DNA of 61,833 bases, counting the filler, from Chloroflexota bacterium (lineage in GTDB: Bacteria; Chloroflexota; Chloroflexia; QHBQ01), in the NCBI GenBank assembly GCA_043754535.1. It is 7 parts of 7 records of this genome, joined end to end, with 100 filler letters (N's around TTAATTAATTAA, not from the genome) between each part and the next. Parts side by side here need not be neighbours in the genome. Positions count along the whole stretch, not along the records: positions 1 to 14,638 come from JAYUUN010000043.1; 6 more parts are not named here. One strand, written 5' to 3'. The number at the start of each line of letters is the position of its first letter. Positions within the stretch are counted from its first letter, which is position 1. A program made the position numbers and the translations under genes. The notes beneath the pieces were generated by a model. That model did no database searches and was not told the DNA's origin. It saw only the letters and a list, made by a program, of their open reading frames with translations. Of the stretch, positions 1 to 14,638 are shown in pieces.

Positions 1-267
1 ACAGTGGTTTGTTAAATTATACCAACTCGACAGGGCGGCCTGCCATTTCATGTTATTACGTGGGCCACCACCGCATTTGTTCCAGGTTCTAGCCATCTAT
101 CATAGCACATAGCCATAGCAGGGGCGCAGAATTAGCCCAAAGTTGGTGCGATGTGCTGTGGTAGGAGCAACAAACACCTTTGGAGACCTACCAGTATCGC
201 GCAGAGGACGGGGCTGGGCTGCGCCTCTCGCGCTGGCAAATAGGCCCAAATTGGTGGACAGCGGGTA

Positions 268-295
268 TCGACAATGGCGAAAAGTGTGCCATAAT
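268..295 (+). promoter_or_regulatory. Putative sigma70 promoter in the CRISPR leader
   Basis: TCGACA (268-273), 16 bp, then TGc-CATAAT (290-295), about 50 bp upstream of the first repeat. Confidence 0.55.
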
Positions 296-344
296 GAGCT
301 TGTTGCAGTAGCCTCTCGCAAGTCGTGCCTAAAGCTAGGCAGGA

Positions 345-527
345 GTTGCAACCACCACCCCGCTTTCGAGGGGATTGAAACCCTTGCTTAGGCATGGTCA
401 CGTGGCACGGTAGCACGTTGCAACCACCACCCCGCTTTCGAGGGGATTGAAACCTGGTTGCCTGGTTGCTCGCCTGTCATCATGCCGTTGGTTGCAACCA
501 CCACCCCGCTTTCGAGGGGATTGAAAC
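345..527 (+). CRISPR. CRISPR array, 3 identical 37-bp repeats and 2 complete spacers
   Basis: GTTGCAACCACCACCCCGCTTTCGAGGGGATTGAAAC at 345-381, 417-453 and 491-527; spacers 35 and 37 bp; CCCC/GGGG stem and 3' ATTGAAAC typical of class 1 repeats. Confidence 0.93.
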
Positions 528-755
528 CTGAACGACCCCAGCATCACTGAGGACTATGCTGGGCAGTTTGCCGCACAGGACAGCATCCCACCCTACCCCA
601 CCGAAGGGCCAAAGACGCTGCATTATGGGCAGCAAGTTCGGGGCGGACTGCCTGGAACCCCAGCTCCTTCCATACCCACACCAGACGTTCCTACTCCGCT
701 ACCATCCACACCTGCTTCTACCGTTTTGCTAGGGGGACACCCGCAACATGGTTGA
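528..755 (+). pseudogene. 3' fragment of a lipoprotein gene, paralog of 34328-35011, fused to the last CRISPR repeat
   Basis: Translates LNDPSITEDYAGQ...PKTLHYG...Pro/Thr tail, TGA at 753-755; matches LNDSTIQEDYPGQ...PRTMHYG of 34328-35011; no start codon. Confidence 0.75.
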
Positions 756-1094
756 CCAGATACTGGGCGACAAGTCCGCTGGGAGCGTCATCCATCGGTT
801 GCATAGCTCTTTGCGCTCTGAAAGTATTCGCGGCTTGGGCGTAGAGATGGGATTTATCCATGTTGCTATGGTTGCTAGGGTGTGTGGCGCAATCTGTCCA
901 GGCAGAGGCGATCCCGGTGACTTCGGTGGCGATAGCGTTGCACCTGAGCCTGGCAAGATACCAGGTTGGGGAAGGAACGCCCGCGACTAAAACACCTCTC
1001 ACCACAACGTTCTGCCATTTGGAAGTATGGGTGCATCGACTTTATCAAGAGGTACACTCTTTGGGATTACAGTCAGCACCCCTGCTTCCAGCTA

Positions 1095-1201
1095 GTAGAT
1101 ACCAGCGTCGTACCTAAAACTTAGGGTTACCTGGGCGAGGTTGCAACGTTCATCCTACCCGCAACGTAGATACCAGCGTCGTACCTAAAACTTAGGGTTA
1201 C
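1095..1201. repeat. Exact 36-bp direct repeat flanking a unique 35-bp segment
   Basis: GTAGATACCAGCGTCGTACCTAAAACTTAGGGTTAC at 1095-1130 and 1166-1201. Confidence 0.95.
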
Positions 1202-1216
1202 ATAAGGAGACTTAAG

Positions 1217-2197
1217 ATGCTCTCAATAGGTTGTAGCACTACCAAAGCAGCTGCTGGGGTTTTCAGGGTTGCAGTGTTGCTTGCAGTGTTGCTTGCAGTG
1301 AGTGGATGCTCTAACAACCCGCTAGGGGACGGGCGACCCCTTCTTGGTCTCTACATCAACCCAGTGGGTGATGGTTGGACTGTCGGCTACTCTGGGGTGA
1401 TTGCCCACTGGCTTAACGATAAGTGGCAACAGGTACCAAGCCCAACAGAGGCTAACCTCTTTAGCATACACATGGCCTCACCTGACAGTGGCTGGATAGT
1501 TGGTGTAGGCGGTACGATCCTCAAGTATAATGGTAGCACATGGGCTAAAGCTAGCAGTCCCACAGATGTCACGCTGTTCTCGGTCTACACTGTCTCACCT
1601 GTGGAGGCCTGGGCGGTTGGGGCTGCGGGCAAAATCCTGCATTATAAAGGTGACAGCTGGTCGTTGGTGGCAAGCCCTACCGATGCAGACCTTCATGCCG
1701 TGCAGATGCTCTCTGCTGACGAGGGTTGGGCGGTGGGTAGCCGACTTCAGACCGCCCAGCCAATGAGTATCATCCTCCACTATGCCAACGGTGTTTGGAC
1801 AAAGCAAAGCACCCCCGAAGGTGTGCGACTGTTTGACATTCAGATGTTTGCTAACGGTGAGGGCTGGGCAGTGGGTCAGGATGTTACGGCCAAGCCCAAT
1901 CCTGACGGTGCCATCCTTCGCTACAAGGATGGCACCTGGACGAGGGAGGCAGTGGCACAGATTTCCTTGCTCAACAGCATCTCAATGACAGATGCGGGTA
2001 ACGGCTGGGCGGTGGGTGGCGGGGCTATGGTACGCTGCACTAACGGTCGCTGGGCCGCTACTGACAGCCCAGCCCCGAAACATGGCCTCTCCAAAGTTTA
2101 TGTCACACCTGACGCTGGTTGGGCGGTTACTGACTATGGCGGAGGCCCGATACTGCGCTATCAGAATGGCACTTGGAGTGCTTTCAAGAACCAGTAG
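1217..2197 (+). CDS. Lipoprotein with GWAVG beta-propeller repeats (YCF48/BNR-like)
   Basis: RBS AAGGAG; lipobox-like VSGC; repeated GW(A/I)VG...ILxY.G..W units. Confidence 0.8.
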   Translation: MLSIGCSTTKAAAGVFRVAVLLAVLLAVSGCSNNPLGDGRPLLGLYINPVGDGWTVGYSGVIAHWLNDKWQQVPSPTEANLFSIHMASPDSGWIVGVGGTILKYNGSTWAKASSPTDVTLFSVYTVSPVEAWAVGAAGKILHYKGDSWSLVASPTDADLHAVQMLSADEGWAVGSRLQTAQPMSIILHYANGVWTKQSTPEGVRLFDIQMFANGEGWAVGQDVTAKPNPDGAILRYKDGTWTREAVAQISLLNSISMTDAGNGWAVGGGAMVRCTNGRWAATDSPAPKHGLSKVYVTPDAGWAVTDYGGGPILRYQNGTWSAFKNQ

Positions 2198-2349
2198 CAG
2201 GCTAGGAGGGTAGCGTGTGGACACTGGGAGCAGGGGCAGCAGACTGTTGCTGCGCTTGGCCGTTGTCCGCGCTGTGAGCAGTCTGCTGATGCTAGTGCCT
2301 ATTGTGCCGCCATCACAATTGCTGACTCGCTGGCTGCCGTGACGTTGAA

Positions 2350-5130
2350 CTACGGCACGCTCTCAATCGCCCGCCGTACGACCTTGCTCAACTCGCCACG
2401 TCGGATGTTGTCGTTGGGCCGGAAGCACTGCCCACCACCGCTGCTGCACGCTGCCCCGTTGATGATGCCTCGGTTTGCCAGCACTTCAATCGCGGCGTAA
2501 GCGAAGTTGTTGTTTGCAACATCGCGGAAGGTCGGGGTGTTGGGGGTGGCAACTGGGTAGTTCCGCGCCCGCTGCACGATGATCGCCACCTGCGCTCGCG
2601 TCACGTTGTTGTTGGGCAGGAAGCAGGGGGCGGCACCGCCGGGGCATTGACCTGGCTGGGTAAAGCCGGTGATCGCACCTGCGTGAGCCGCTGCTTCGAT
2701 GTAGCCATAGAAGACGTTGTTTTGCGCCACATCGCGGAAGGTTGGGGCGGTCGGGTTGTAGGCCGCGATGCCAAAGCCGACCACCGCGATCTTGGCGAAC
2801 TCACCGCGCTTGCTGTTATCGTTGGGCCGGAACAGGCCGCCGCTGCCGCTAACTACGCCACGACAGGCCAGGAACTGGATGTCGTTGTAGAACAGGTTGC
2901 TGCTTGGCACGTCGCTGAAGCTGATGCTGCAAGGGGTGGGGGTGCTGCCACCAGGGGTCGAAGTTGCAGCCGGGAGCGTCGGGGCGGGAGGCGGGGTCGG
3001 CACGGTGAGGTAGGTGACGAACGCATCGCGGCTGCCTGCGTTGTTGGGCTGGTAAGCACCAACAGTGACGAAGTTGCTTGAGCCGCTCTCGCCCACAACG
3101 TAGACCTTGCCAGCCGCATCCACCTTGATGCCCGTGCCGCTGTCTACGCTGTTGCCACCCAGATAGCTCGAATAGCCATAGGCTGTACCGTTGCTGTTCA
3201 CCTCGGTGACGAAGGCATCGGTATCACCGCCCGCTGTACTCTGGTCGGCGTTGACGGTCGGGAAGTTGGTCGCCTGCTGGAAGTCAGGGTTGGTCTGGCC
3301 GGTGACATAAGCGATCCCGCTGTCACTGACTGCGATGGCGTTGGCATAATCGTTGCCGCTGCCGCCGAGGAAGCGGGAGTAGACGAGGCTGCTGCCGGTC
3401 GGGTTGAGCTTGGTGATGAAGGCATCAAAGCCGCCTGCATAGCTGCTGGGCTGGGTGCTGGGGAAGCTGCCGCCGTTGGTGAAGCCGGTCAGATAGATGT
3501 TGTTTGCGCTATCGAGCGCAATGCCAGTGCCGTAATCATCACCGGGGCTGCTACCCGCTGGGCCGCCACCGAGGTAGGTAGCGTAGACCCGCATTCCAGT
3601 GGAGTTGAGCTTGGTGACGAACAGATCGCCGAAGCCACCGGCAAAGGCAGCCTGATAGGGGTTGAGGGTCGGGAAGTTGGTCGAGAGGGTCGTACCAACC
3701 ACGTAAGCGTTACCCCCACTGTCCACCGCAATCGCTCCGGTGAACCTACCCGACGGTAGGCTGTCCTCGTAGTTGCTGCCGCCGAGGTAGGTAGCATAGA
3801 CCCGCGCCCCATTGCTGTCGAGCTTGACGACGAAGGCATCGCTGATCCCGCCGCCGTAGCTGGGTTGCGCGGCGTTGAGGGTGGGGAAGTTGCTGGATTG
3901 GGTCATGCCGGTGACGTAGACATTGCCGTCGGAGGCGACTCCATAGGCCGTATCATCGCTGCTGCCGCCGAGGTAGGTGGAGTAGATCAGGTCGCTACCC
4001 ACCGTGTTCAGGCTGCTGACGAAGGCATCAAAGCCACCGGCTCGGCTAGCCTGAATAGGATTGCGCGTCGGGAAGTTGTTCGCGTTGGTAGTGCCTACTA
4101 CGGTGGCGATACCGTTGGTTACGACAATGCTGTAGGCCACATCCTGCCCCTGGCCGCCGAGGAAGGTAGAGTAGACGAGGCTGCCACTGCTGCTGAACTT
4201 GCTGATAAAAGCATCATTTGTCCCCTGCCCGAAGTTGGGTTGGAACGACCCGGCAGTGGTGGGGAACGGAGTGGTGATCCCCGACTGGGTTGCCCCACAG
4301 ACGTAAACGCTGCCGTCACTATCAATCGCCACCGCATCGGCTCCGTCGGGATCGCCACCACCGAGGTAGGTCGAGTAGATGATCGGGTCAATCACCAAAG
4401 CGCGGCTGTGGTCATAAGCGGCGACATCGAAGCCGTACTCGCCCCCGCCAACGAGGTTGTATCCACCGGTGACGGCCACACGCCCAGCGGCGGTATCCTG
4501 ATAGATGCGCGGGGCGGCCTGGCGCAACTCGCCTGCTGCGCTGCGGATCACTAGTTCATTTCCCTCCATCGCCACCTGCCCAGCTCCCGCCACCTTGAGG
4601 CGGATTGGGCTGAGGTCAGCACCCGGCGCAACGACAAAATCGTACTCCAGCTTGCTGCTGCTTCCATAGTAAACGAGGTCTACGCCGGGATAGACGTTGT
4701 GGTAGCTGACCCGCTCATAGTTGGGGACGTTGTGCAACCACTGACTGCGGTCATTGCCGAGCAGGTAGTTGCTGACCCCGGCCAGCTTGCCTTCAGCAAC
4801 AGGCGACGCGGGGAGATTCGCTCCCTGCAACTGAAACCGCAGCACGGTAGTGGGTTGACTGGCGTTGGCGGGCTGCTGGTTCAACACCATCGTCGTTTCC
4901 TGGTCAGTGAAGTAGAGGCTGTAGCCAGCGGCGTGGGCAAGGTATAGCACGCTGGGGTCGGCCTGCCCCACGTTCGCCTCGAAATGGAGCGGTTGGCTGA
5001 GTGCGTCGTAGGTAGCGGGGGCGGCGGAACGAGCCGGGCGGTTGACCGCCCAGTTGGTGAGGCTGGCTACGCTGCTGAGGAGCAGCAAGGCCAGCGCGAG
5101 AGTAGACCACTTCTTCAAAGATAGACGCAT
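2350..5130 (-). CDS. Secreted SBBP-repeat beta-propeller protein with C-terminal SLH domains
   Basis: RBS AAGGAG before ATG 5130; signal peptide; FEANVGQ N-domain; YSTYLGG repeats; FSDVP...RGEFAK SLH repeats. Confidence 0.88.
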   Translation of the reverse strand: MRLSLKKWSTLALALLLLSSVASLTNWAVNRPARSAAPATYDALSQPLHFEANVGQADPSVLYLAHAAGYSLYFTDQETTMVLNQQPANASQPTTVLRFQLQGANLPASPVAEGKLAGVSNYLLGNDRSQWLHNVPNYERVSYHNVYPGVDLVYYGSSSKLEYDFVVAPGADLSPIRLKVAGAGQVAMEGNELVIRSAAGELRQAAPRIYQDTAAGRVAVTGGYNLVGGGEYGFDVAAYDHSRALVIDPIIYSTYLGGGDPDGADAVAIDSDGSVYVCGATQSGITTPFPTTAGSFQPNFGQGTNDAFISKFSSSGSLVYSTFLGGQGQDVAYSIVVTNGIATVVGTTNANNFPTRNPIQASRAGGFDAFVSSLNTVGSDLIYSTYLGGSSDDTAYGVASDGNVYVTGMTQSSNFPTLNAAQPSYGGGISDAFVVKLDSNGARVYATYLGGSNYEDSLPSGRFTGAIAVDSGGNAYVVGTTLSTNFPTLNPYQAAFAGGFGDLFVTKLNSTGMRVYATYLGGGPAGSSPGDDYGTGIALDSANNIYLTGFTNGGSFPSTQPSSYAGGFDAFITKLNPTGSSLVYSRFLGGSGNDYANAIAVSDSGIAYVTGQTNPDFQQATNFPTVNADQSTAGGDTDAFVTEVNSNGTAYGYSSYLGGNSVDSGTGIKVDAAGKVYVVGESGSSNFVTVGAYQPNNAGSRDAFVTYLTVPTPPPAPTLPAATSTPGGSTPTPCSISFSDVPSSNLFYNDIQFLACRGVVSGSGGLFRPNDNSKRGEFAKIAVVGFGIAAYNPTAPTFRDVAQNNVFYGYIEAAAHAGAITGFTQPGQCPGGAAPCFLPNNNVTRAQVAIIVQRARNYPVATPNTPTFRDVANNNFAYAAIEVLANRGIINGAACSSGGGQCFRPNDNIRRGELSKVVRRAIESVP

Positions 5131-5262
5131 CGGTTTAACTCCTTCTTGTGGGGTGGTCTGCCAACCACCATTTGGTTGAGAGATAGCTGTTGCTAGCAAG
5201 TGGTCAGCCCCAGGCCGGGTTAAGCTGACGCTTGCGTGGGTGGACTAGCCGCTTGCCAGATC

Positions 5263-5307
5263 GCCATTGTAGGCGACTGCCCTGCGCAAAAGTTGGTGTT
5301 TGTTGGT
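5263..5307 (-). promoter_or_regulatory. Conserved operator/promoter, copy 1, facing the SBBP-SLH gene
   Basis: Minus strand ACCAACAAACACCAACTTTTG-N14-CTACAATGGC, same architecture as 8048-8092; a divergent TGgTACAAT (5321-5329) faces the regulator. Confidence 0.75.
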
Positions 5308-5386
5308 CTGCTGACTATAGTGGTACAATTGTAGTAGGCGTATGCTCCCCGCAGCCCGCGCCGAGCAACTCTGGCTGAGGGTAACG

Positions 5387-7960
5387 ATGTACAATCTGGA
5401 AACCTTTCGCAAGCGCGTGCGTGAATGCTACCGCCGTAGCACACCCTATGACGACCACAAGCCCAATCAGCGCGATCTCGCCGAGGCTGTCGGCCTCGAT
5501 CCAACAAACCTGAGCAAGCGGATGCACGGTGTGGCGGGTGAACGGCTGAGCGACGAGAACGTGCGGGCCATCGTCAGCGTGCTGGCCGAGTGGGGTGCGC
5601 TCACGACGCAGGCCGAGGCGTTGGAGTTGCTGGCTCTGGTCAACTGCCCGCCCTTCACCGCCGCGCAGTGGCAAGCCCCGCCACTCGATCTGCTCACCCC
5701 ACCACCTGCCCCCGCTCGTGCCGCTGCTGCCAGTTCCGTGTCGCCAGCCACTAACCCTAACCCACCGACGCGGCACAACCTGCCCCCACCGCTGACCAGC
5801 TTTGTCGGGCGGCAGCAGGAGTTGCGCGAGTTGGAGACGCTGCTGGGCCGCACCCGCCTGCTGACCCTGATTGGGATCGGCGGTTGCGGCAAGACGCGGC
5901 TGGCTTTGGAACTGGGCTATCGGCTGACCGACCGTTTTGCGGGCGGGGTCTGGCTGGTTGAACTGGCCGCCCTGAACGATAGCAGCCTGCTAGCCCATGC
6001 GGTGGCCCGCACGCTCGGCCTTAAGGAGCAGGCGGGTGTAGATTTGGTCGCCACCCTGATCGCCGCTATGGGTGGGCATGAGAAACTGCTGATCGTGGAC
6101 AACTGCGAACACCTGGTTGCCCCGACCGCCAGCCTGATCCACCAACTGCTGCTCGGCTGCCCCAACCTGCGGGTGCTGGCAACCTCGCGGGAGACGCTGC
6201 GGGTGGCGGGCGAGTACGTCTGGCCGGTGCCAACCCTGTCGCTGCCACCCATACGCATAGCGGTCAGTGCGCGGGTGCTACCCCGCTACGAGGCGGTGCG
6301 GCTGTTCGTGACGCGGGCCAAAGCCGCCAGCCCTGGATTCAGCCTGAGCGAAAAGAACGCCGCCGCCGTAAGAACGGTTTGCGAGATGCTGGACGGCATC
6401 CCTCTTGCGCTGGAACTGGCAGCGGCACGGGTAGGGGTGCTTGCTGTCGAGCAGATCAGCGGGCGGCTACACCAACGCTTCCGCCTGCTGACGGGTGGTA
6501 GCCGCACCGCTAGCCCCCGCCAGCAAACCCTGCAAGCCCTGATGGATTGGAGCTACGACCTGCTGACCGCTGAGGAGCAACTGCTGTTCAGCCGCCTGGC
6601 TGTCTTTGCCGGGGGCTGCGAACTGACTGCGGTAGAGGTGGTGTGCAGCGACGAGCAGCTAACTGCCGACCGTTGTCTGGAAGTGCTGGCCGCGCTGGTC
6701 AACAAATCGCTGCTGCTGACCAGAGGGCAGCCGGGGGCGATGCGCTACCTGATGCTGGAGACGCTGCGTGAGTATGCGACGACAAAGCTAAGCGGCAGCG
6801 GCGAAGCGACCAACGTGCAGCAGCGGCACGCCGCCTATTATCTGCAAATGGCTGAGACTGCCGAGCCGGAGTTGCGGGGCAGCGAACAGGCCATGTGGCT
6901 GACGCAGCTGGAAGCTGAGCATGACAATATGCGGGCGGCTCTGGGCTGGTCAATTAACAAGGGGCAGAGTGAGATAGCCCGTGGCTTGAGTGGTGCGCTT
7001 GCCGCTTTCTGGGTGGGTCATGGACACTTTACGGAGGGGCGTGAGTGGCTACGCCTATCTTTGGCCCTAAGCGGTGATGACAATCTGGCGGCGAAGGCAA
7101 AGATGCTGCATGGCGCGGCTAATCTGGCCCTCTACCAAGGCGACTACAACACCGCCAGGCAGTTGTATGAGCAGGTGGTGGTGCTTCAACAGCAGTTGCA
7201 TAATCAAAAGGGAGCAGCCTCCGCCTTGAACAACCTCGGCATCATTGCTGAATATCAGGGGGATTACCTTACTGCCCGCAATCTTTATGAGAACAGCCTA
7301 AGCATCCAGCGTGAGTTGGGCGAGAAGTGGAACATAGCGGCTTCGCTAAACAATCTGGCAATTGTTGTCAACATTCTGGGTGACGCTGACACATCTAGCA
7401 AGCTCGTAGCCGAAAGTCTGGCTCTCCGACAGGAGTTGGGCGACAAGCGGGGGGTGGCTCAGTGTCTGGGGATGCAGGCAGATGCCGCAATCAAGAGTCG
7501 TAGTTATGAAGCCGCCCAGCTAGCTTTGACCGAGGCGGTTGCAATCGCCCGTGCGCTGGAAGATAGATGGCTGATGGCTAATCTGCTCGGTAGCTCGGCT
7601 GATGTAGCTATTGCGCTGACTAACTATCACACTGCCACAAACTTTGTGCGAGAAGCCATTAAGCTGATCAATGAGTTGCAGGATCGCCTGGGACTAGCAA
7701 CGATGCTTTACCGGCTGGCGCGGATACTGGTATCACAAGGTCAGCCAACCGCCGCCGCTATTTTGCATGGTGCGGAAGAAGCTCTGCGCAAGACAATTGG
7801 TTCAACGCTGCCTCCTGACTACCTTGCAGCCCACAACGAACTGGTTGCCAGCCTACAAGCCGCACAGAACAAGGCAGCCTACGCCACAGCCTGGGCCGAG
7901 GGGCAGGCGATGTCGCTCGATGAGGTGATTGCCCACGCCCTCGCAGCCACTGGAGACTAA
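5387..7960 (+). CDS. HTH-like + STAND (NB-ARC-type) ATPase + TPR transcriptional regulator
   Basis: N-terminal QRDLAEAVGLDPTNLSKRM helix-turn-helix; NLPPPLTSFVGR; Walker A GIGGCGKT; Walker B LLIVDNCEH; GIPLALELAA; TPR repeats ASALNNLG. Confidence 0.88.
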   Translation: MYNLETFRKRVRECYRRSTPYDDHKPNQRDLAEAVGLDPTNLSKRMHGVAGERLSDENVRAIVSVLAEWGALTTQAEALELLALVNCPPFTAAQWQAPPLDLLTPPPAPARAAAASSVSPATNPNPPTRHNLPPPLTSFVGRQQELRELETLLGRTRLLTLIGIGGCGKTRLALELGYRLTDRFAGGVWLVELAALNDSSLLAHAVARTLGLKEQAGVDLVATLIAAMGGHEKLLIVDNCEHLVAPTASLIHQLLLGCPNLRVLATSRETLRVAGEYVWPVPTLSLPPIRIAVSARVLPRYEAVRLFVTRAKAASPGFSLSEKNAAAVRTVCEMLDGIPLALELAAARVGVLAVEQISGRLHQRFRLLTGGSRTASPRQQTLQALMDWSYDLLTAEEQLLFSRLAVFAGGCELTAVEVVCSDEQLTADRCLEVLAALVNKSLLLTRGQPGAMRYLMLETLREYATTKLSGSGEATNVQQRHAAYYLQMAETAEPELRGSEQAMWLTQLEAEHDNMRAALGWSINKGQSEIARGLSGALAAFWVGHGHFTEGREWLRLSLALSGDDNLAAKAKMLHGAANLALYQGDYNTARQLYEQVVVLQQQLHNQKGAASALNNLGIIAEYQGDYLTARNLYENSLSIQRELGEKWNIAASLNNLAIVVNILGDADTSSKLVAESLALRQELGDKRGVAQCLGMQADAAIKSRSYEAAQLALTEAVAIARALEDRWLMANLLGSSADVAIALTNYHTATNFVREAIKLINELQDRLGLATMLYRLARILVSQGQPTAAAILHGAEEALRKTIGSTLPPDYLAAHNELVASLQAAQNKAAYATAWAEGQAMSLDEVIAHALAATGD

Positions 7961-7982
7961 AACCAGCCAGCCCGCAGTCTAC

Positions 7983-8008
7983 AAGGGGCGCGCAGTGCGC
8001 CTCTTTTT
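7983..8008 (+). terminator. Rho-independent terminator of the regulator gene
   Basis: GGGGCGC-GCAGT-GCGCCTC followed by TTTTT. Confidence 0.7.
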
Positions 8009-8047
8009 GCTGCCCGCTAAACTTGCTGGATCATTCTTTACCACTTC

Positions 8048-8092
8048 ACCAACAAACACCAACTTTTGGCGATCCCGCCGCGCTACAATGGC
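8048..8092 (+). promoter_or_regulatory. Conserved operator/promoter, copy 2, facing the small peptide gene
   Basis: ACCAACAAACACCAACTTTTG (8048-8068)-N14-CTACAATGGC (8083-8092). Confidence 0.75.
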
Positions 8093-8160
8093 TGCGTAAC
8101 GTTCCTGCTGAACCTGACATACTAGCAGCGAGCGAATAACAACGAAGGGAGGTGAACAGC

Positions 8161-8253
8161 ATGAAGTTCTTGCACATGATCCTTGCCCTGCTCGGCCAGC
8201 GCAACATCGCTCGCCATGACGACCCGAACGGCACCACTTCTTGGGCTGGTTGA
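8161..8253 (+). CDS. 30-aa small peptide MKFLHMILALLGQRNIARHDDPNGTTSWAG (absent from the ORF track)
   Basis: Strong RBS GGAGGTGA just upstream of the ATG, own promoter, downstream hairpin; hydrophobic N-half and polar C-half. Confidence 0.75.
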   Translation: MKFLHMILALLGQRNIARHDDPNGTTSWAG

Positions 8254-8280
8254 TCGCCAACCAGTTCCGTTTCAACAAAG

Positions 8281-8319
8281 AGGGTAGCCGCTGCCATGCT
8301 GTATGGCGGCGGCTATCTT
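8281..8319 (+). terminator. Strong hairpin after the peptide gene
   Basis: AGGGTAGCCGCTGCCAT-gctgt-ATGGCGGCGGCTATCTT. Confidence 0.65.
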
Positions 8320-8506
8320 GGCCTCTCCCTCGCCAGCAACATACCCTTCCCCTTGCAAGCAATTAAGACCAACACATCGTTATGCTAGTTCGCCCTGTTA
8401 CCACTAATTGGGCAGCGTACCGCCTACACCAACTATCCAGCCACTGTCAGGTGAGGCCATGTGTACGCTATTACTCAACTCTCCACGAGTAATCGAGTAA
8501 TGTTGA

Positions 8507-9484
8507 AGTTGGGCTGGCAGCAGCGGCAACCTGACCAGCGACCGCTACAACTACGATGCCTACGGCAGCCTGCGTGCTGGCAGCGTGAGCAGCACCCAGA
8601 ACGCCTACCGCTACAAGGGGCAGCAGTTCGACCAGACGACCGGGCTTTACAATCTGCGGGCCAGGTACTATAATAGCGGGCAGGGGCGGTTCCTCAGCCA
8701 GGACAAGGCTGGGTACAACTTCGAGAACCCTGTGGAGCTGAACCGGTACGGGTACGTTGCAGGGAACCCTGTTAATAGGTACGATCCAAGTGGCTACGGC
8801 TTGATTGACTACACAAAGATACTGAAGAAGATAGATACAACCGCCGCTTATGCTCTTAACCAAATGGGCCAACTTGAGCGCAACCTCATGGCGGGAGATA
8901 CTTACGCCGTTGCTTCCGCCAACCTCTGGGTAGCTGCTAAACTAGAGTTTGAGTGGGTTCAACAATTTAAGCATGACGAAACCTGCTACAGTAGATGGGG
9001 TAGACCTCGTGTTGCACTAGCGTTTAGCATGGTGGCACCCGCTGGCAACTGGCATCCTATAGTAGCCGCTAGAGGGATGGCCTGCCCTCTGTTCCAGATC
9101 ATGATAGCTCTTGACGTTGAACTAGCAGGTGGTGAGTTTATTAGTGGGATTATGCTTGATGGATGGAGAGGCTGGCTTCCACCTGGCTCACAGTGGGATT
9201 GGGGTCTGAACTTGCATGCGGAGCGTCTCCTCTACGAAGCCTTCGAGAGTCAGATACCGTCCGTTGCAAACAGGGGAACAGGTACCTTTTACGCCATAGG
9301 AGTAAGCCAACCACTTTGTAATGGGCAGTATAGAGATGGTCAGAACTGCCAAAGGTACTTTGGGAAGGGGATGCAAACCGGACGCAAGATGTTCCAGCCT
9401 TTCTCAACGGACTTCCCTGGAGTACAAGCACCCTATCCGCAAATAGCTATAGCCTATCCATGGCAGGACAATGTACCCTTATGA
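8507..9484 (+). CDS. Orphan Rhs core + C-terminal toxin (deaminase-like), N-truncated
   Basis: YNYDAYG, YRYKGQQFD..GLYNLRARYY..GRFLSQD, NPVNRYDPSG cleavage motif; CT has HAE and IGVSQPLC-x9-C; in-frame TGA at 8504. Confidence 0.82.
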   Translation, partial: SWAGSSGNLTSDRYNYDAYGSLRAGSVSSTQNAYRYKGQQFDQTTGLYNLRARYYNSGQGRFLSQDKAGYNFENPVELNRYGYVAGNPVNRYDPSGYGLIDYTKILKKIDTTAAYALNQMGQLERNLMAGDTYAVASANLWVAAKLEFEWVQQFKHDETCYSRWGRPRVALAFSMVAPAGNWHPIVAARGMACPLFQIMIALDVELAGGEFISGIMLDGWRGWLPPGSQWDWGLNLHAERLLYEAFESQIPSVANRGTGTFYAIGVSQPLCNGQYRDGQNCQRYFGKGMQTGRKMFQPFSTDFPGVQAPYPQIAIAYPWQDNVPL

Positions 9485-10260
9485 GATCTTACATCCATAG
9501 ATACTTGGCAGGCGAGTCTCAGCAGGTTTGGGTCGAACTAAGATCTGCTAGTGTGAATGTTCGTGGTCAAGAAGTTTATGATGATGTCCTGTCTGTTGTC
9601 ATGGAGTCAGCAAAGAGAGCAATGTACAACTTTACCATCATAATTAGAAAACTTCAAGAACTAAATTACCTTTTCATATCCAAGTCGCCTTTCATTCAAC
9701 CATCTGTAGATGTCAGAAGTTATCTAGATGAGCTAGAAACTTTGTGTGGGTTGATGCCAATGATTATCCGCTCTTGGTTTGAGGTTGTTGGACACGTAAA
9801 TCTAAGTGGCACACATCCATCCTGGTTGGTTTGTGGGGATTACGAACTACTTTCCATGTACGGAGTTGAATCACGACTTACCGCTCTATCCAAAGAGGCA
9901 CTATGCAGGGAGAAGCCCTTTGTAAAAACATACGCCTTCCAAACTACGTCCTCACTCCTCTCTTGGTACGGACATGATCGAGAACGCTTTCTTGAAGCTG
10001 GGACCATAATAGGTATAAACCTATGGGATGATGAATTGATTATGGCAGGGGACCTGGAGGGTGTTAGTGAGATTGTTGCACCTTTTGCTGGAGCAGATGG
10101 TTACTTTCTCCACAAGGATGCGAACATCGCACCAACTTTTATTGAGTACCTGCGCCGCAGCTTCGAGTGGGGTGGCTTTCCTGGCTTCGCCAACGTGCCA
10201 GAAGAACTGCGCCCCACCGAGATGCTAGACTACCTGCGCGAAGGCTTGCTGCCGATATAA
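9481..10260 (+). CDS. Putative immunity protein
   Basis: ATGA overlap with the toxin stop; lower GC; RYLAGE..VW.EL N-terminus and FIEYLRRSFEWGGFPG C-terminus. Confidence 0.65.
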   Translation: MRSYIHRYLAGESQQVWVELRSASVNVRGQEVYDDVLSVVMESAKRAMYNFTIIIRKLQELNYLFISKSPFIQPSVDVRSYLDELETLCGLMPMIIRSWFEVVGHVNLSGTHPSWLVCGDYELLSMYGVESRLTALSKEALCREKPFVKTYAFQTTSSLLSWYGHDRERFLEAGTIIGINLWDDELIMAGDLEGVSEIVAPFAGADGYFLHKDANIAPTFIEYLRRSFEWGGFPGFANVPEELRPTEMLDYLREGLLPI

Positions 10261-10400
10261 CATTATACCAAACAGCAACCGCCCTACAATCAAGCTAACC
10301 GACGAGCAAGCGTCATCTTGGGCGCAGGCTGTTGCTGCTGGCTTTACCCTCGCACAACTGCGCGTGCTATACATAAGCCTGAGCGACAATCCCACCCGGC

Positions 10401-10658
10401 TTGTTCACACCGTCCACCAACTACTCCCCAGCCCATCAGCTAACTATCTGGTTTGGCATCCTGCGCATCAGCTTCCTGTTTGTCCATTGGTTTGTAGCCT
10501 TTACCGAAGCGGGTAAACTGACCAGCTACGTGGCGGGCCTTATACCGCACAACAAAGACGTGTTTAGCTCACTGCTCGGCCTCATCGTCATAATCCTGAT
10601 CTTTGTTGGCCTGCCCACCAAGCTAGTCGTAAGTTTGGTAAGAAGGGCGCACAAATAG
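10401..10658 (+). CDS. Possible small membrane protein or fragment
   Basis: Two hydrophobic stretches; weak start. Confidence 0.3.
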   Translation: MFTPSTNYSPAHQLTIWFGILRISFLFVHWFVAFTEAGKLTSYVAGLIPHNKDVFSSLLGLIVIILIFVGLPTKLVVSLVRRAHK

Positions 10659-10860
10659 CTCCCAAAGCGAAGGCGGCTCTATACGAGTTTGTTAGTGTGG
10701 AGCATGGTCAGGGCGAATGATGACTTTGCGATAGTGATCATGATAGGTTGTTATTATCACTATCATCTAGCTACCAGCCCTCATCAGAGCTAGATCAGCG
10801 ACCACTTTGAGGCCCAGCGCGACGGCCACTTCCCTCAGTTGGTCAAGATCGGTCTCAGCG

Positions 10861-11240
10861 TACTGCTGTTCGCTACTGCCGCTGGGCAGGTGCGCCAGCA
10901 CGCTCCCCGCGTCTAACAGCAGACTGCTAAAGGCAAGCATGAAATAACGGGCAGCTACCGACTAGACTTAGCTTCCAGATCGGTAGCTATGACCGCAGCC
11001 TTGCCTTGGTGATCGACCCAACCACTGCAGGCGCACTTCAGCCGCGCCTGGCTGGGTACCTGGATGCAGTGATCACCAAGCTGGCCGCCTAGTGGTGACC
11101 ACCTGATCTTCTCTACTTACTTTGGCGGCCTCCGTGTTGACTTTGCTACCCAGGCAGCACTCGACAGCACAGGCAACATCTACCTCTCAGGCCAGACCTT
11201 CTCGCTCAACTTCCCTACCAGGAACGCCTACCTTAGTGCT
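10861..11240 (+). pseudogene. Degraded SBBP-repeat protein fragment
   Basis: LLFATAAGQVRQHAPRV*QQ..GSYDRSLALVIDP..LIFSTYFGG..DSTGNIYLSGQT matches 2350-5130, with stops and frameshifts. Confidence 0.75.
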
Positions 11241-11360
11241 GCTCTGTATTGGAGTGCCAGTCAACTACTTGCTAGCGGCAGTGATGATGATGGGGCTCGT
11301 AGAACCCACAGCGAAGCCGCCCATCCTGCTGGTGGGCGGCCTTGTAAAGTAGGTTGGCTG

Positions 11361-13943
11361 TTACTTGCTTGCAGGGTTGATGGTCAACTGCCCGATAGTT
11401 GTATTACCAGGCTCATCCCGCGACAATTCCTTAGGCTTCAAGCTCTGCTGTTCGAAGTAATGAGCGTAGCTGTTAGGGCTGGCGTGGCTGTGGATAATCG
11501 GCTGAGGCTGGGTGGCCCCACGCCGCTGCCCACCCAACGACCGCTCCTGCCTGCCAAGCAGGTCGCCAGCTTGGTACGGACCCTGGTACTGGATCGGGTT
11601 CAGCATCATGTCCACCAGGATTTGTGAGTGGTCCATGAACGAGAGCGAGCCGCCCGACGCATAGTCTGCCTTTGGATGGTCGTCCAGTGAGCTGAGCAGC
11701 ATACTGCTACCGAGAGCCGAGCCGAAGCGCAGGTTGCCAGCGTAGGGTAGCCCAAAAGGGTTGCCAGGGTCGGTGTAGTAGCGCACGCCACAGTCGGTAC
11801 ACTCCTGCACCCACGCATCGTTGAACTTCGAGAAGGCGTGGTCAAGTAGCTGGAAGGTAGCTGCCGACCACTCGGTGGCGTGGAACCAGGTGTCCCAGTG
11901 GTTGCCGAAGCCGAGGATCAGCGGGCCACCAACTAGCGATACCCCACCGTAGTTGGTCTGGAAGGCGTAGCTGGCCGGGGGTGGATCGTCCTCGTCCAAC
12001 ACTGGGTTTTCGGTGTTCCAGTCCCCACCGATCACTACATTGCGGTCTGGCCCCGCCAACTCCTCCCATATCTTGTAGATTTGCCGGGAGCGACACTCGC
12101 TTCCATTATGCGAGGCGTTGGATGCAGGGTGAACTGCAACAGCACGGAGGGCCACTACCTGATCTACTACCAGGCGGGCAGAGAAGGCAGTGAAGTCGGG
12201 ATTGCAGGTAAGAGGGTACCCTGCGTTGTCAGCTTCGTAGCCGTACACCGAGTCCTCGCTACCAGCCACCAGTTGCACGCGCCTAGTCTTCCAGGCGATA
12301 CACTCATGTTCGCCTGACGAGCCGGGTGTATCCCAGTAAGTGGCACTGCCATCTGGCAAGGTACTCTTGCCGCAGATGTCATTGTAGCCAACGGGCAAGA
12401 GCGGCCCCCCGATGTCGAGGTTGGTGAAGAAGAAAGGCCCAACCTCAAAGTAGGAGGTGCCTGACACGTTGCTGCCCAACAACTGCGCCTCGCGGTAGAC
12501 TTCGGAGAACATGATCACATCCGGTTCCCAGATGTTGATGTACTGGTTGATCGAGCGTACAACGCTGGGGTCGCACAGCTTGTATGTCCAGCAGCCGGGG
12601 TAGAGATTGCCGACGTTGATCGCCAGATAGCGTAGCGGGATCGGTGTAGACCAGGAACGTAGTACGAAGAATCCATCTGTAACTGGCACTGCCTGACCGT
12701 TGATCGTCAGCCTCAATACCGCTGCACTGGCCGGGCTGTTCGCCGCCCGCCCTGGTTCGGGTGGGGTGGCCGCGGCCACGCGGAAGCGGATCGCATTGTT
12801 CGACCAGCTTACGATGCTGGCCGCTACTCCGTTGATCGTTAGGGTGCTGCTACCCTGGGTGGCCCCGAAGTTCAAGCCGCTGATCGTGATGATCTCGCCG
12901 CTACCAGCGGCGGCGGCAGCGGGGTCGATCCGCTCAACTCGCGGCTGACCAGGCACGGGCGTGGAAGTAGGCGTGAGAGTGGGAGCAGGCGTTGAAGTAA
13001 TTGCTAGTACAGTAGGCGTGGCAGTACTGCCTGTTGGTGGGGTGGGAGTGCTACTGACCACTACTGAGCTAGTAGCAACCGGCGTGCCGCACGGTTCCAC
13101 TGGTGCTGTTGCCACCCTGATAGCCTCGGCAGTAACGAAGGCTGTACTCACTGGTGTAAAGGAGCCAGGGCGACAGGTAGCGGTAGCCAGAGGAGTGGCA
13201 GTGCCAGCCGCCCGCGTGCGCGTAGCCGCAATACTGGTGTTGGTGGCGGCAATACTGGTGTTGGTGGCGGCTATGGCTGTATTGGTGGCCGCTGCTGCTG
13301 TGTTGTTGGCCGCCGCCGCAGTGCTGGTTGCGGCCAGGCTGGTGCTGGTTGCACCTATGCTGGTGCTGGTCGCTGCCAAACTGGTGCCAGTCGCCGCCAA
13401 ACTGGTGCGGGTTGCGGCCATCGCCGTATTGGTGCTGCTAATCACGCTAGTACCAGTCGCTGCCAAACTGGTACTGGTTGCGGCCAGGCTGGTGCGCGTC
13501 GCTGCCAGACTGGTGCTGGTTGCCGCCAGGCTAGTACCCGTTGCTACCACTGCTGTGTTGGTACCATTAGCAGCAGCAGCAGTAATCGTTGCCGCCAGCA
13601 CAGTGAGGGTGGTTGCAGGTGTGGCGGGAACGAAGGCTGTATCGGTCGGGCCTGGGGTATAGTTGGGGCTGGCTGCCGTCAGGGTGGCCGCGACGTTGGT
13701 GTTGGTTGCCTGTATTGCTGCCTGGGTCAAGACCCCGACAAATGTAGTACGAGTCAGGTTAGGAGTGCTGGTGCCAGTCAGGGTCAGCTTGGCTGTAGTG
13801 TTATCTGCCGAGTAGAGGCTGGTGGTTTAAACGGTCAGCCGCACCGCTAGCAGAACCAGACTGAGGGCCGAAACTCCTAATACCACAGCCAGGTAGCTCA
13901 TCCAGGCAGGCAGTTCCAGTGACAACTTTGCTTTACCCATCAT
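11361..13943 (-). pseudogene. Membrane-anchored protein: TM, Thr/Ala heptad stalk, IPT/TIG domain, exonuclease-endonuclease-phosphatase domain; in-frame TAA at codon 39
   Basis: ATG 13943 is in frame with ORF 11361-13730; TAA at 13827-13829; EEP motifs INVGN, DVIMFSEV, VIGGDWN, LDH, MDH. Confidence 0.7.
13200..13560 (-). repeat. 21-bp (7-aa) coding tandem repeats, TSLAAT(S/R/G)/TSIAATN
   Basis: Visible in the translation of the stalk; coordinates approximate. Confidence 0.85.
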
Positions 13944-14525
13944 GTGTTTACTACCCCACTTCAGAGACCGGGGTTAACCCAGATGCCATCTTGTGTCAAA
14001 GCGTCGGCTTGAGTTCATTTGCGTGATCTCAACGCAGTTAACAACTTTCATCACTGCCAAGTATACACTGATATGCTTTCTTCTGCAAAGGACAGAGCCT
14101 GGCTGTTTCCAAAGGCTCGGCAGGGATCGGTTAATGTAGCAGACACAGCTTCCCCTTCAGCTTAGGTTTAGATTCCTATTGGGGAATTGGCTGTAGCCAT
14201 TGTCAGTTCAGTAAACTTGGCTCATGAGCAGAAATCTTATGCTACTGACCGGACCGACGTTGAATGGCTGTGCGTCGGCCCCCTGGTTGAATGTAAGTCC
14301 AAGGTCGGCGCACCCACTGAGTTGCACATCTGCACAGTCGTCAGTCTCAAGTAGTGGCTGCCCAGGCTGCTCTCTCAGCTTGAGGGTGGCGACCAGTACT
14401 GTGGTAGGAAGGTGGGGTCTCTGAGGGTGGCCGCTGCGACCAGGTAGACCACCCCAGCATAGTCTTCCAACAGGCCGCCACCTGACCGCATCCCCACCTT
14501 GCTTACTCAGCTTCATGCCCAAAAA

Positions 14526-14554
14526 TTGACACTGTGGCCCTACTCTGCTAGGAT
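14526..14554 (+). promoter_or_regulatory. Putative sigma70 promoter; target gene lies beyond the contig end
   Basis: TTGACA-17 bp-TAGGAT. Confidence 0.5.
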
Positions 14555-14638
14555 ATGCCCAGCCAACGCCACAGCTATAGCATATGTCTAACCCATCGTT
14601 GGTGGAGACACAGAGAGGAGGTCAGGCTGAGGCATCCC

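Follow-up and report, generated by a model that had tools for sequence, protein, structure and literature searches.

We analysed a 61,833-nucleotide window of DNA from a Chloroflexota bacterium (assembly GCA_043754535.1, hereafter G000), in which positions 1-14638 are contig C43 and the remainder consists of other contigs joined by runs of N. The assembly comprises 3,872,131 bases in 132 contigs, with a GC content of 61%, a completeness of 88.9% and a contamination of 0.7%. On contig C43, a gene for an 857-aa regulator, which carries a helix-turn-helix (HTH), a NOD (nucleotide-binding oligomerization domain) along with tetratricopeptide repeats (TPRs), lies between two copies of one promoter motif (Table 1). 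The initial annotation had described these copies as standing on both sides of the regulator and pointing outward, one facing an SBBP-SLH gene and the other a small peptide open reading frame (ORF), and we found the two copies, their orientation and their targets exactly as it had placed them.

Table 1. Features of the regulator locus (positions in the window; promoter elements, ribosome-binding site and hairpins are predictions)
Feature	Position	Strand	Description
Target gene 1	2350..5130	-	926-aa predicted exported surface protein: signal-peptide-like N-terminus, DUF7948, six SBBP beta-propeller repeats, SLH
Promoter copy 1 (P_sbbp)	5263..5307	-	ACCAAC-AAAC-ACCAAC-TTTTG (5287-5307), 14-nt spacer, CTACAATGGC (5263-5272); -10 TACAAT at 5266-5271
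Putative regulator promoter	5300..5329	+	TTGTTG (5300-5305), 18 nt, TACAAT (5324-5329); read from sequence
Regulator, 857 aa	5387..7960	+	N-terminal XRE-type HTH (~aa 1-100), linker, P-loop NOD, arm, TPR sensor
Intrinsic-terminator-like hairpin and U-run	7983..8010	+	Downstream of the regulator gene; -17.5 kcal/mol, z -3.3, 0/200 shuffles as stable
Promoter copy 2 (P_pep)	8048..8092	+	Same 21-mer (8048-8068), 14-nt spacer, CTACAATGGC (8083-8092); -10 at 8084-8089
Ribosome-binding site AGGGAGGTG	8146..8154	+	6 nt upstream of the peptide ATG; read from sequence
Target gene 2, 30-aa peptide MKFLHMILALLGQRNIARHDDPNGTTSWAG	8161..8253	+	30-codon ORF
17-bp perfect hairpin, likely terminator	8282..8318	+	Weak U tract; -32.5 kcal/mol, z -4.1, 0/200 shuffles as stable

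Each promoter copy consists of the same 21-mer (ACCAACAAACACCAACTTTTG), 14 unconserved nt and then CTACAATGGC. These two sites were the only matches to the 21-mer in the window when up to three mismatches were allowed (0 were expected from 100 shuffles), and, at the same tolerance, they were also its only two occurrences in the whole assembly. The 21-mer contains CCAAC twice, 10 bp apart, which is the direct repeat one helical turn apart that had been noted together with a TACAAT -10. If TACAAT is taken as -12 to -7, the half-sites occupy positions of about -47 to -43 and -37 to -33, the proximal one ending 20 nt from the -10, and the predicted transcription starts, as read from the sequence, lie near 5259 for P_sbbp (minus strand) and near 8096 for P_pep (plus strand). 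Neither motif promoter has a -35 consensus, and a sigma-70 consensus scan called neither of them, as would be the case for activator-dependent promoters. The gene behind P_sbbp starts with an ATG at 5130, with GAAGGAG upstream, and its product matched the Pfam families DUF7948 (8.9e-59), SBBP (2.5e-31) and SLH (2.7e-17).

The alignment of homologs with the longest ORF of the regulator begins at residue 15, and we therefore set the start at the ATG at 5387. The protein has a P-loop NOD with a Walker A motif (GIGGCGKT, of the form GxxGxGK[ST]), a Walker B motif (LLIVDNCEH, of the form hhhhD), a sensor-1 TSR and a GLPL-like GxP motif (GIPLALELAA). The columns of the Walker A, Walker B, TSR and GIPLA(I/L)ELAA motifs were invariant in an alignment of 20 full-length homologs, the fully conserved residues being G163, G166, G168, K169, L234, L235, D238, T266, S267, R268, G337, P339 and L340. 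Pfam reported TPR_12 (2.1e-26 over 5 stretches) and AAA_22 (35.1 bits against a cut-off of 27), and the NB-ARC family (PF00931) is present in the precomputed Pfam lists of homologs of the regulator. With a C-terminal repeat sensor made of TPRs and a terminal effector, namely an N-terminal helical domain of 100 aa that contains the HTH, the protein has, as far as its sequence tells, the architecture and the P-loop and GxP motifs of an AP-type STAND (signal transduction ATPase with numerous domains) ATPase. The first ~100 residues form a conserved domain (predicted local distance difference test score of the AlphaFold model, 86) whose best Foldseek matches in the PDB were XRE/Cro-type HTHs (CI of TP901-1, C.BclI, ClgR and SinR, at E 0.17-0.7), and the modelled fold thus matches XRE-type HTH domains weakly, if consistently. 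The NOD-TPR core is shared by a very large family whose members exchange their N-terminal effector, the alternatives in Pfam being adenylate cyclase, SARP, XRE-HTH, protein kinase and TIR. Within G000 itself, the full-length paralogs number ~10, some of them having cyclase N-termini, and a comparison set of 41 related genomes yielded more than 1300 matches. The tallies for this set (regulator family, motif and peptide leader) take in four unpublished genomes, G007, G012, G015 and G034, in which the regulator family was present and neither the motif pattern nor the peptide pattern was found. Of the relatives of the regulator that carry a name, the nearest (42% identity) is encoded in a metagenome-assembled genome of Candidatus Chloroheliales (Chloroflexota, Chloroflexia), which makes the phylum given in the initial annotation a reasonable one. 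As a separate observation on the family, the NOD-TPR paralogs on the G000 contigs C48, C106, C76, C127 and C9 have a class III adenylate/guanylate cyclase-like N-domain (TFLFTDIEGST...) and no HTH.

The sole close ortholog of the regulator, at 63% identity, was found in a genome of the same genus (G001, contig C69). There, all of the genes lie on one strand in the order regulator, terminator, motif, peptide 1, peptide 2, hairpin, motif and DUF7948-SBBP-SLH gene, the last of these encoding a surface-protein ortholog with the same domains as target gene 1. The first G001 motif (ACCAATAAAGACCAACTTTTG-N14-CTACAATGGC) precedes peptide 1 (MKFLHLILALLGHRTLASNNPAPDGTSAWAG) and peptide 2 (MKFLSLINALLGQRRLAFLDDPHG), with a ribosome-binding site (AAAGGAGAA) at the equivalent place upstream of the peptide, and the second (ACCAACAAAGACCAACTTTTA-N14-CTACAATG) precedes the surface-protein gene. 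The surface-protein unit therefore stands on opposite sides of the regulator in the two genomes; since the gene order differs and both promoter-target pairs are nevertheless kept, each promoter travels with its target. When the four promoters were aligned, the invariant columns were ACCAA-AAA-ACCAACTTTT and CTACAATG, that is, the repeats, the T-tract and the -10, and the spacers and flanks varied. Similarly, in the spacer between regulator and peptide, the best-conserved part between G000 and G001 was a block running from the repeats to ~25 nt beyond the -10, whereas the terminator region and the middle of the 5' untranslated region had diverged.

The comparison bears differently on the regulator's own promoter. 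The -35-like TTGTTG of the putative regulator promoter in the window does overlap the distal CCAAC of copy 1, as had been pointed out, and this overlap is found in G000 only. The regulator promoter of G001 is an ordinary TTGACA-18-TAGTAT without the repeat, and the overlap is therefore a by-product of rearrangement, not a conserved design. The suggestion that the regulator autoregulates through this overlap is thus unsupported as a design feature.

A strong ribosome-binding site (GGGAGGTG) precedes the 30-codon ORF, and because hairpins stand after the regulator and again after the peptide, the peptide gene forms a separate unit. Measured against peptide 1 of G001, 13 of its codons are identical, 7 are synonymous and 11 are nonsynonymous, and the stop is at the same position. 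Conservation across the peptides covers the N-terminal 14 residues (MKFLxxIxALLGxR) and the C-terminal DGTxxWAG, with variation in the middle. Given its strong ribosome-binding site, its own promoter, its hairpin and its conserved frame, we take the peptide gene to be real and under purifying selection. The initial annotation had called the gene unannotated, which is not fully correct: the exact 30-aa sequence, like that of G001 peptide 1, already exists as a called, nameless protein in several public sources; G001 peptide 2 had no exact match in the public protein collection. The 30-aa peptide had no match in Pfam, NCBIfam or the ESM Atlas, and Rfam had none over window positions 1-14638. Of the 41 related genomes, only 2 had the leader pattern, and both belong to this genus. 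When metagenomes were scanned with the back-translated leader, 15 loci were returned. In 3 of them the peptide is identical and the contig matches the window at ~99.7% (the same species); the other 12, unrelated low-GC sequence or signal peptides of longer proteins, were rejected. By eye, the N-terminus of the peptide is signal-peptide-like. A candidate ligand sequence derived from the peptide is RHDDPNGTTSWAG, and a complex prediction for the arm-TPR fragment (aa 440-857) with the peptide, run without controls, scored 0.14 against a mark of 0.32 and speaks neither for nor against binding.

Beyond the two orthologous loci, the degenerate pattern CSAAYAAANNCSAAC-N18-23-TANRAT gave 17 matches in the 41 related genomes and the reversed control gave 0. 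The matches were distributed as 5 in G000, 8 in G001, 1 in G003, 2 in G004 and 1 in G023, with 16 of the 17 in family f1. Four matches outside the window locus directly follow paralogous regulators (two at G001:C25, one at G003:C16 and one at G004:C56). At G001:C25, the paralogous regulator (L024 4092-6332) is followed by two CCAACAAAATCCAAC promoters, of which the first leads to a globin of 142 aa (Pfam Globin, 5.4e-15); the second leads to a 489-aa exported protein of no family. Three extra sites in G000 also read CCAACAAAATCCAAC (CCAAC-AAA-nnCCAAC promoters at C62:19373, C105:41583 and C128:167475), and two of the three have conserved counterparts in G001. They precede, respectively, an uncharacterized exported protein, a Rax2-like propeller-SLH protein and a DUF7948-SBBP-SLH protein, and their regulon may be that of the window regulator or that of a paralog missing from the assembly. 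No protein of G000 is a close ortholog of the G001:C25 regulator (best match, 40% identity); such a regulator may be unassembled in G000, because homologs of its target sit at contig starts. The motif is no general DUF7948 promoter, since only two of the six DUF7948 genes in G000 carry a CCAAC promoter, one of the others standing at a contig end and three having other promoters. Two further features were seen at G003:C16. The promoter there is followed by an ORF of ~55 codons with a strong ribosome-binding site, which overlaps the DUF7948 start and is unrelated to the MKFL peptides, and at 10560-10640 of this locus (L014) the 3' end of the regulator meets a tandem run of GTTTTGA heptamers, a long inverted repeat and the direct-repeat promoter.

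We then looked at the 350 nt downstream of the stop codon of 32 nonredundant HTH-type regulators, taken from G000-G004, G008 and G022. Judged by eye, two to four direct repeats with a period of 10-12 bp, placed 15-30 nt upstream of TAnnAT, followed 14 of the 32. These cassettes are those of G000 C43 (the window), C78, C62 and C97(-); G001 C69, C204, C25 and C160; G003 C16 (second regulator) and C100; G004 C56 and C190; G008 C8; and G022 C78. An automated detector found such promoters after 9 of the 32 regulators and after 65 of 2055 other long ORFs, and with other settings the counts were 9/32 versus 55/2055, 11/32 versus 174/2055 and 10/32 versus 151/2055; one setting missed the window's own site owing to its complexity filter. 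The cassettes fall into ~11 distinct repeat classes, and across them the repeat sequence was shown, by sequence comparison, to co-vary with the recognition helix of the predicted HTH. Three regulators with the helix ELSRRLNG (G000 C62 and C97(-), G004 C190) adjoin GC[GA]CAA, the C62 cassette site reading GCACACAAAA; three with ELSSRLNG (G001 C25, G004 C56, G003 C16) adjoin C[CG]AAC; two orthologs with ELSNRLNG (G000 C78, G001 C204) adjoin ACCCC; and the window regulator and its G001 C69 ortholog, with NLSKR[ML]HG, adjoin ACCAAC. In 11 of the 14 cassettes, the gene that comes first behind the promoter begins in a signal-peptide-like manner (by eye; the other three were outside the comparison), and the Pfam families among the targets are DUF7948-SBBP (four cassettes), SLH, plastocyanin-like, SnoaL-like, DUF4785 and globin.

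We propose, with a probability of roughly 0.65, that the 857-aa STAND protein is an activator that binds the tandem CCAAC half-sites and controls both adjoining promoters, a reading built on sequence comparison and on analogy with characterized STAND regulators. By the analogy with MalT and AfsR, an inducer would bind the arm/TPR sensor and open the NOD, ATP-bound protomers would associate head to tail, and their N-terminal HTHs would thereby be brought into tandem. The tandem HTHs would bind the pair of CCAAC half-sites, which are spaced by 10 bp around a centre near -40, and the occupied half-sites would replace the absent -35, so that a housekeeping-type RNA polymerase could use the TACAAT -10. 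The outputs would be the SLH-anchored DUF7948-SBBP surface protein and the small, probably exported, 30-aa peptide. The link between regulator and promoters is well supported by the comparison, and the proposal of the initial annotation that the regulator acts on both promoters gains from the conserved regulator-promoter-target unit and the co-varying repeats, while DNA binding, activation rather than repression, multimerization, the start sites and the inducer are steps that we infer.

Several observations weigh against this proposal. The three extra CCAAC promoters of G000 have no adjoining regulator, and 18 of the 32 paralogs lack a repeat promoter (among them one at a contig end and at least two whose ORF is interrupted). 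The p-values (for the 9/32 versus 55/2055 setting, Fisher p = 2e-7) overstate the evidence, because the cases are drawn from related genomes and paralogs and are not independent. Near-identical CCAAC half-sites stand beside several paralogs, and adjacency is thus no proof of which paralog binds which site. As to the protein, the Pfam NB-ARC match of the regulator itself is under the cut-off (16.7 versus 23.5 bits, E = 0.0047), and every Foldseek match of the HTH domain lies above E = 0.1. The geometry is unlike that of SARP promoters, the proximal half-site standing 20 nt from the -10 as opposed to 8 bp (PMC10936776). Finally, no public RNA run contained window positions 5000-8600; the DNA runs that did number 12, from 8 studies, some of them possibly from the source sample.

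A further proposal concerns the inducer. The 30-aa product might be exported and processed and a C-terminal fragment of it reimported, so that it induces the system through the arm/TPR region in an RRNPP-like, NOD-gated autoinduction loop. Its binding would set off the ATP-dependent head-to-tail assembly on the CCAAC sites, and the regulator would thereby turn on its own signal as well as the surface protein. Its appeal is that the peptide gene comes directly after the regulator, between two hairpins and under its own copy of the regulator-linked promoter, and that the peptide is conserved in G001 in two tandem copies, the MKFLxxIxALLGxR pattern being invariant and the changes concentrated in the middle, behind an N-terminus that resembles (by eye) the signal peptides of other cassette targets. 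The receptor, moreover, combines an XRE-type HTH with TPRs, as RRNPP receptors do (PMC10075063), and AP-ATPase-TPR proteins coupled to small processed peptides have been predicted in other systems (PMC7159879). The initial annotation had suggested a search for small ORFs beside homologous regulators. G001 has two peptide homologs, and the other 12 of the 14 direct-repeat cassettes drive ordinary proteins and have no such peptide; an adjoining peptide is thus not generally needed by the sensors of this family. The leader pattern, too, was found among the 41 genomes in this genus only, the metagenome contigs adding only the same species, and neither in G000 nor in G001 is the locus flanked by a gene for processing, export or import. 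The hydrophobic stretch of the peptide is only ~10 residues long, the -3 residue of a possible cleavage site is N, T or R, and just two orthologous regulator-peptide pairs are at hand for an analysis of coevolution. We regard the autoinduction loop as doubtful, and we would put the odds well against peptide sensing by the TPR domain even within this ortholog group.

Alternatively, the CCAAC repeats might be bound by another factor, either a paralog of the G001:C25 type or a global factor, with the window regulator being a neighbour or a coregulated gene. The regulator-free CCAAC-AAA-nnCCAAC promoters of G000 would be explained in this way, as would the fact that at least four different paralogs adjoin CCAAC-like half-sites, those at G001:C25 reading CCAACAAAATCCAAC; with the best G000 match to the G001:C25 regulator at 40% and the assembly 88.9% complete, a further regulator could have escaped assembly. 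Nevertheless, the exact 21-mer class (AAAC/AAAG spacer, ACCAAC, TTTTG) was found only beside this regulator and its ortholog, and the non-CCAAC repeat classes track their own adjoining paralogs and recognition helices, which makes another binder quite unlikely. Very improbable, finally, is a duplicated constitutive promoter or an alternative-sigma target in which the repeat serves as an unusual -35 or UP-like element and no activator takes part: the copies do share the CTACAATGGC context of the -10 as well as the repeats, as whole-promoter duplication would leave them, and the rearranged order of regulator and targets implies recombination here, but the 14-nt spacer has fully diverged while the repeats, T-tract and -10 remained exact, the -10 is of the housekeeping type, and a single sigma factor fails to explain unrelated repeats of the same architecture after other paralogs.

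Other features of contig C43 were noted around the locus. A CRISPR array fragment lies at 345-530, near the contig start, with three 37-nt repeats (GTTGCAACCACCACCCCGCTTTCGAGGGGATTGAAAC) 72-74 nt apart, and a metagenome contig from a strain variant (L041) has a near-copy of this repeat, reversed, downstream of its peptide gene. At 1095-1130 and 1166-1201 lies a 36-nt direct repeat (GTAGATACCAGCGTCGTACCTAAAACTTAGGGTTAC), exact in both copies and CRISPR-like in its 71-nt spacing, which ends 15 nt upstream of an ORF (1217-2197) for a Ycf48/BNR-like propeller. On the other side, the ORF at 8585-9484 starts with an RHS repeat-associated core (TIGR03696, 2.7e-19, aa 4-70), has no long Rhs body and overlaps the next ORF, which encodes 266 aa and matched no family; by its sequence, the segment 8585-10260 resembles an orphan Rhs tip to which an immunity gene may belong. 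The same-species metagenome contigs match the window at ~99.7% identity as far as 8527, beyond which they diverge fully (L041 4368-5599), and window positions 8383-8470 are 86% similar to the reverse complement of 1462-1556. Given this divergence after 8527 and this inverted similarity, the region downstream of the peptide gene is a rearrangement hot spot.

STAND regulators with an HTH effector are greatly expanded in Chloroflexota and other filamentous bacteria, and their targets are almost uncharacterized. The cassettes offer testable protein-DNA pairs together with a candidate recognition code that can be read from the genome, and they suggest a route by which DUF7948-SBBP-SLH surface proteins may be switched in mostly uncultured organisms. 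Should the inducer turn out to be the peptide, a new phylum and a new class of receptor would be added to peptide quorum sensing, and the locus would be the first example both of an RRNPP-like system that uses a STAND switch and of one beyond Bacillota, set within a lineage-wide collection of paralogous cassettes. The statement in the initial annotation that no STAND-containing peptide system had been described in Chloroflexota is consistent with the literature, in that our lookup, which had most subscription journals outside its scope, turned up no XRE-HTH/NOD/TPR regulator with mapped direct-repeat sites or a cognate peptide; PMC9765709 makes no mention of Chloroflexi, Chloroflexota, NTPase or Actinobacteria.

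Among known systems, GutR of Bacillus subtilis has the order N-terminal HTH-NOD-TPR. Glucitol reportedly triggers a conformational change and ATP binding in GutR, to go by the title of Poon et al. 2001. It differs from the window system in having a small-molecule inducer and a single catabolic target. GutR is counted among the nonimmune STANDs as a transcription activator (PMC13581612).

The RRNPP(A) systems (PlcR-PapR, Rgg-SHP and AimR-AimP) pair a receptor made of an XRE-type HTH and TPRs with an adjoining small peptide gene, and an Rgg-type receptor controls the promoter of its peptide (PMC10075063). The window has a TPR receptor with an N-terminal HTH and, 200 nt past its stop codon, an adjoining 30-aa ORF that falls in the 10-100 aa range and is kept in G001; this distance compares with a reference range of -50 to 191 bp. 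RRNPP receptors have about 250-500 aa (PMC10075063) and no ATPase, whereas the protein here has 857 aa and a NOD, and the systems are known from Bacillota and their mobile elements. In the FxSxx-COOH-type systems of Kaur et al. 2020, a STAND ATPase with C-terminal TPRs has a genetic link to a small peptide that evolves fast, is more conserved at its C-terminus and is predicted to be a toxin or a signal (PMC7159879). The regulator gave weak NCBIfam matches far under the cut-offs to FxSxx_TPR (76 versus 300 bits) and the RiPP-linked HaaT (93 versus 1125 bits). The FxSxx systems differ in having a metallopeptidase, often with radical-SAM and vWA/MoxR partners, none of which was seen at this locus, and in having effectors that are not HTHs.

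The Escherichia coli STAND/LAL regulator MalT resembles the window regulator in combining a NOD ATPase with a helical-repeat sensor (TPR-like SUPR), and it binds several asymmetric boxes after inducer-driven multimerization (PMC4381067). Binding of the inducer at the sensor and arm opens the NOD, and head-to-tail multimers then bind the MalT boxes cooperatively (PMC4381067). The HTH of MalT is C-terminal and of the LuxR type, whereas that of the window regulator is N-terminal and of the XRE type, the protein ending in TPRs with no other HTH. The inducer of MalT is maltotriose, and the TPR_MalT match of the window regulator was under the cut-off (25.2 versus 45 bits). AfsR and the other large SARPs of Streptomyces share with the window regulator an N-terminal DNA-binding effector followed by a NOD and TPRs (PMC10936776), and, going by Pfam, SARP-fused proteins and the window protein's NOD-TPR core are members of one large family. 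The SARP DNA-binding domain is an OmpR-type winged helix with a BTAD domain, in contrast to the XRE-like domain here: the window regulator matched neither PF00486 nor PF03704, and the NCBIfam AfsR model reached 41 bits against a cut-off of 1430, over the TPRs only. In the case of AfsR, two adjacent SARP protomers occupy two direct repeats overlapping a poor -35 and activate by replacing the contact that sigma region 4 makes there (PMC10936776). The motif promoters, too, have direct repeats one helical turn apart at the -35 position, with a period of 10 bp in place of 11 bp and a half-site ending 20 nt from the -10, where the SARP 3' repeat is 8 bp away. The comparison suggests that the locus is a further case within the known STAND activators that act on direct repeats.

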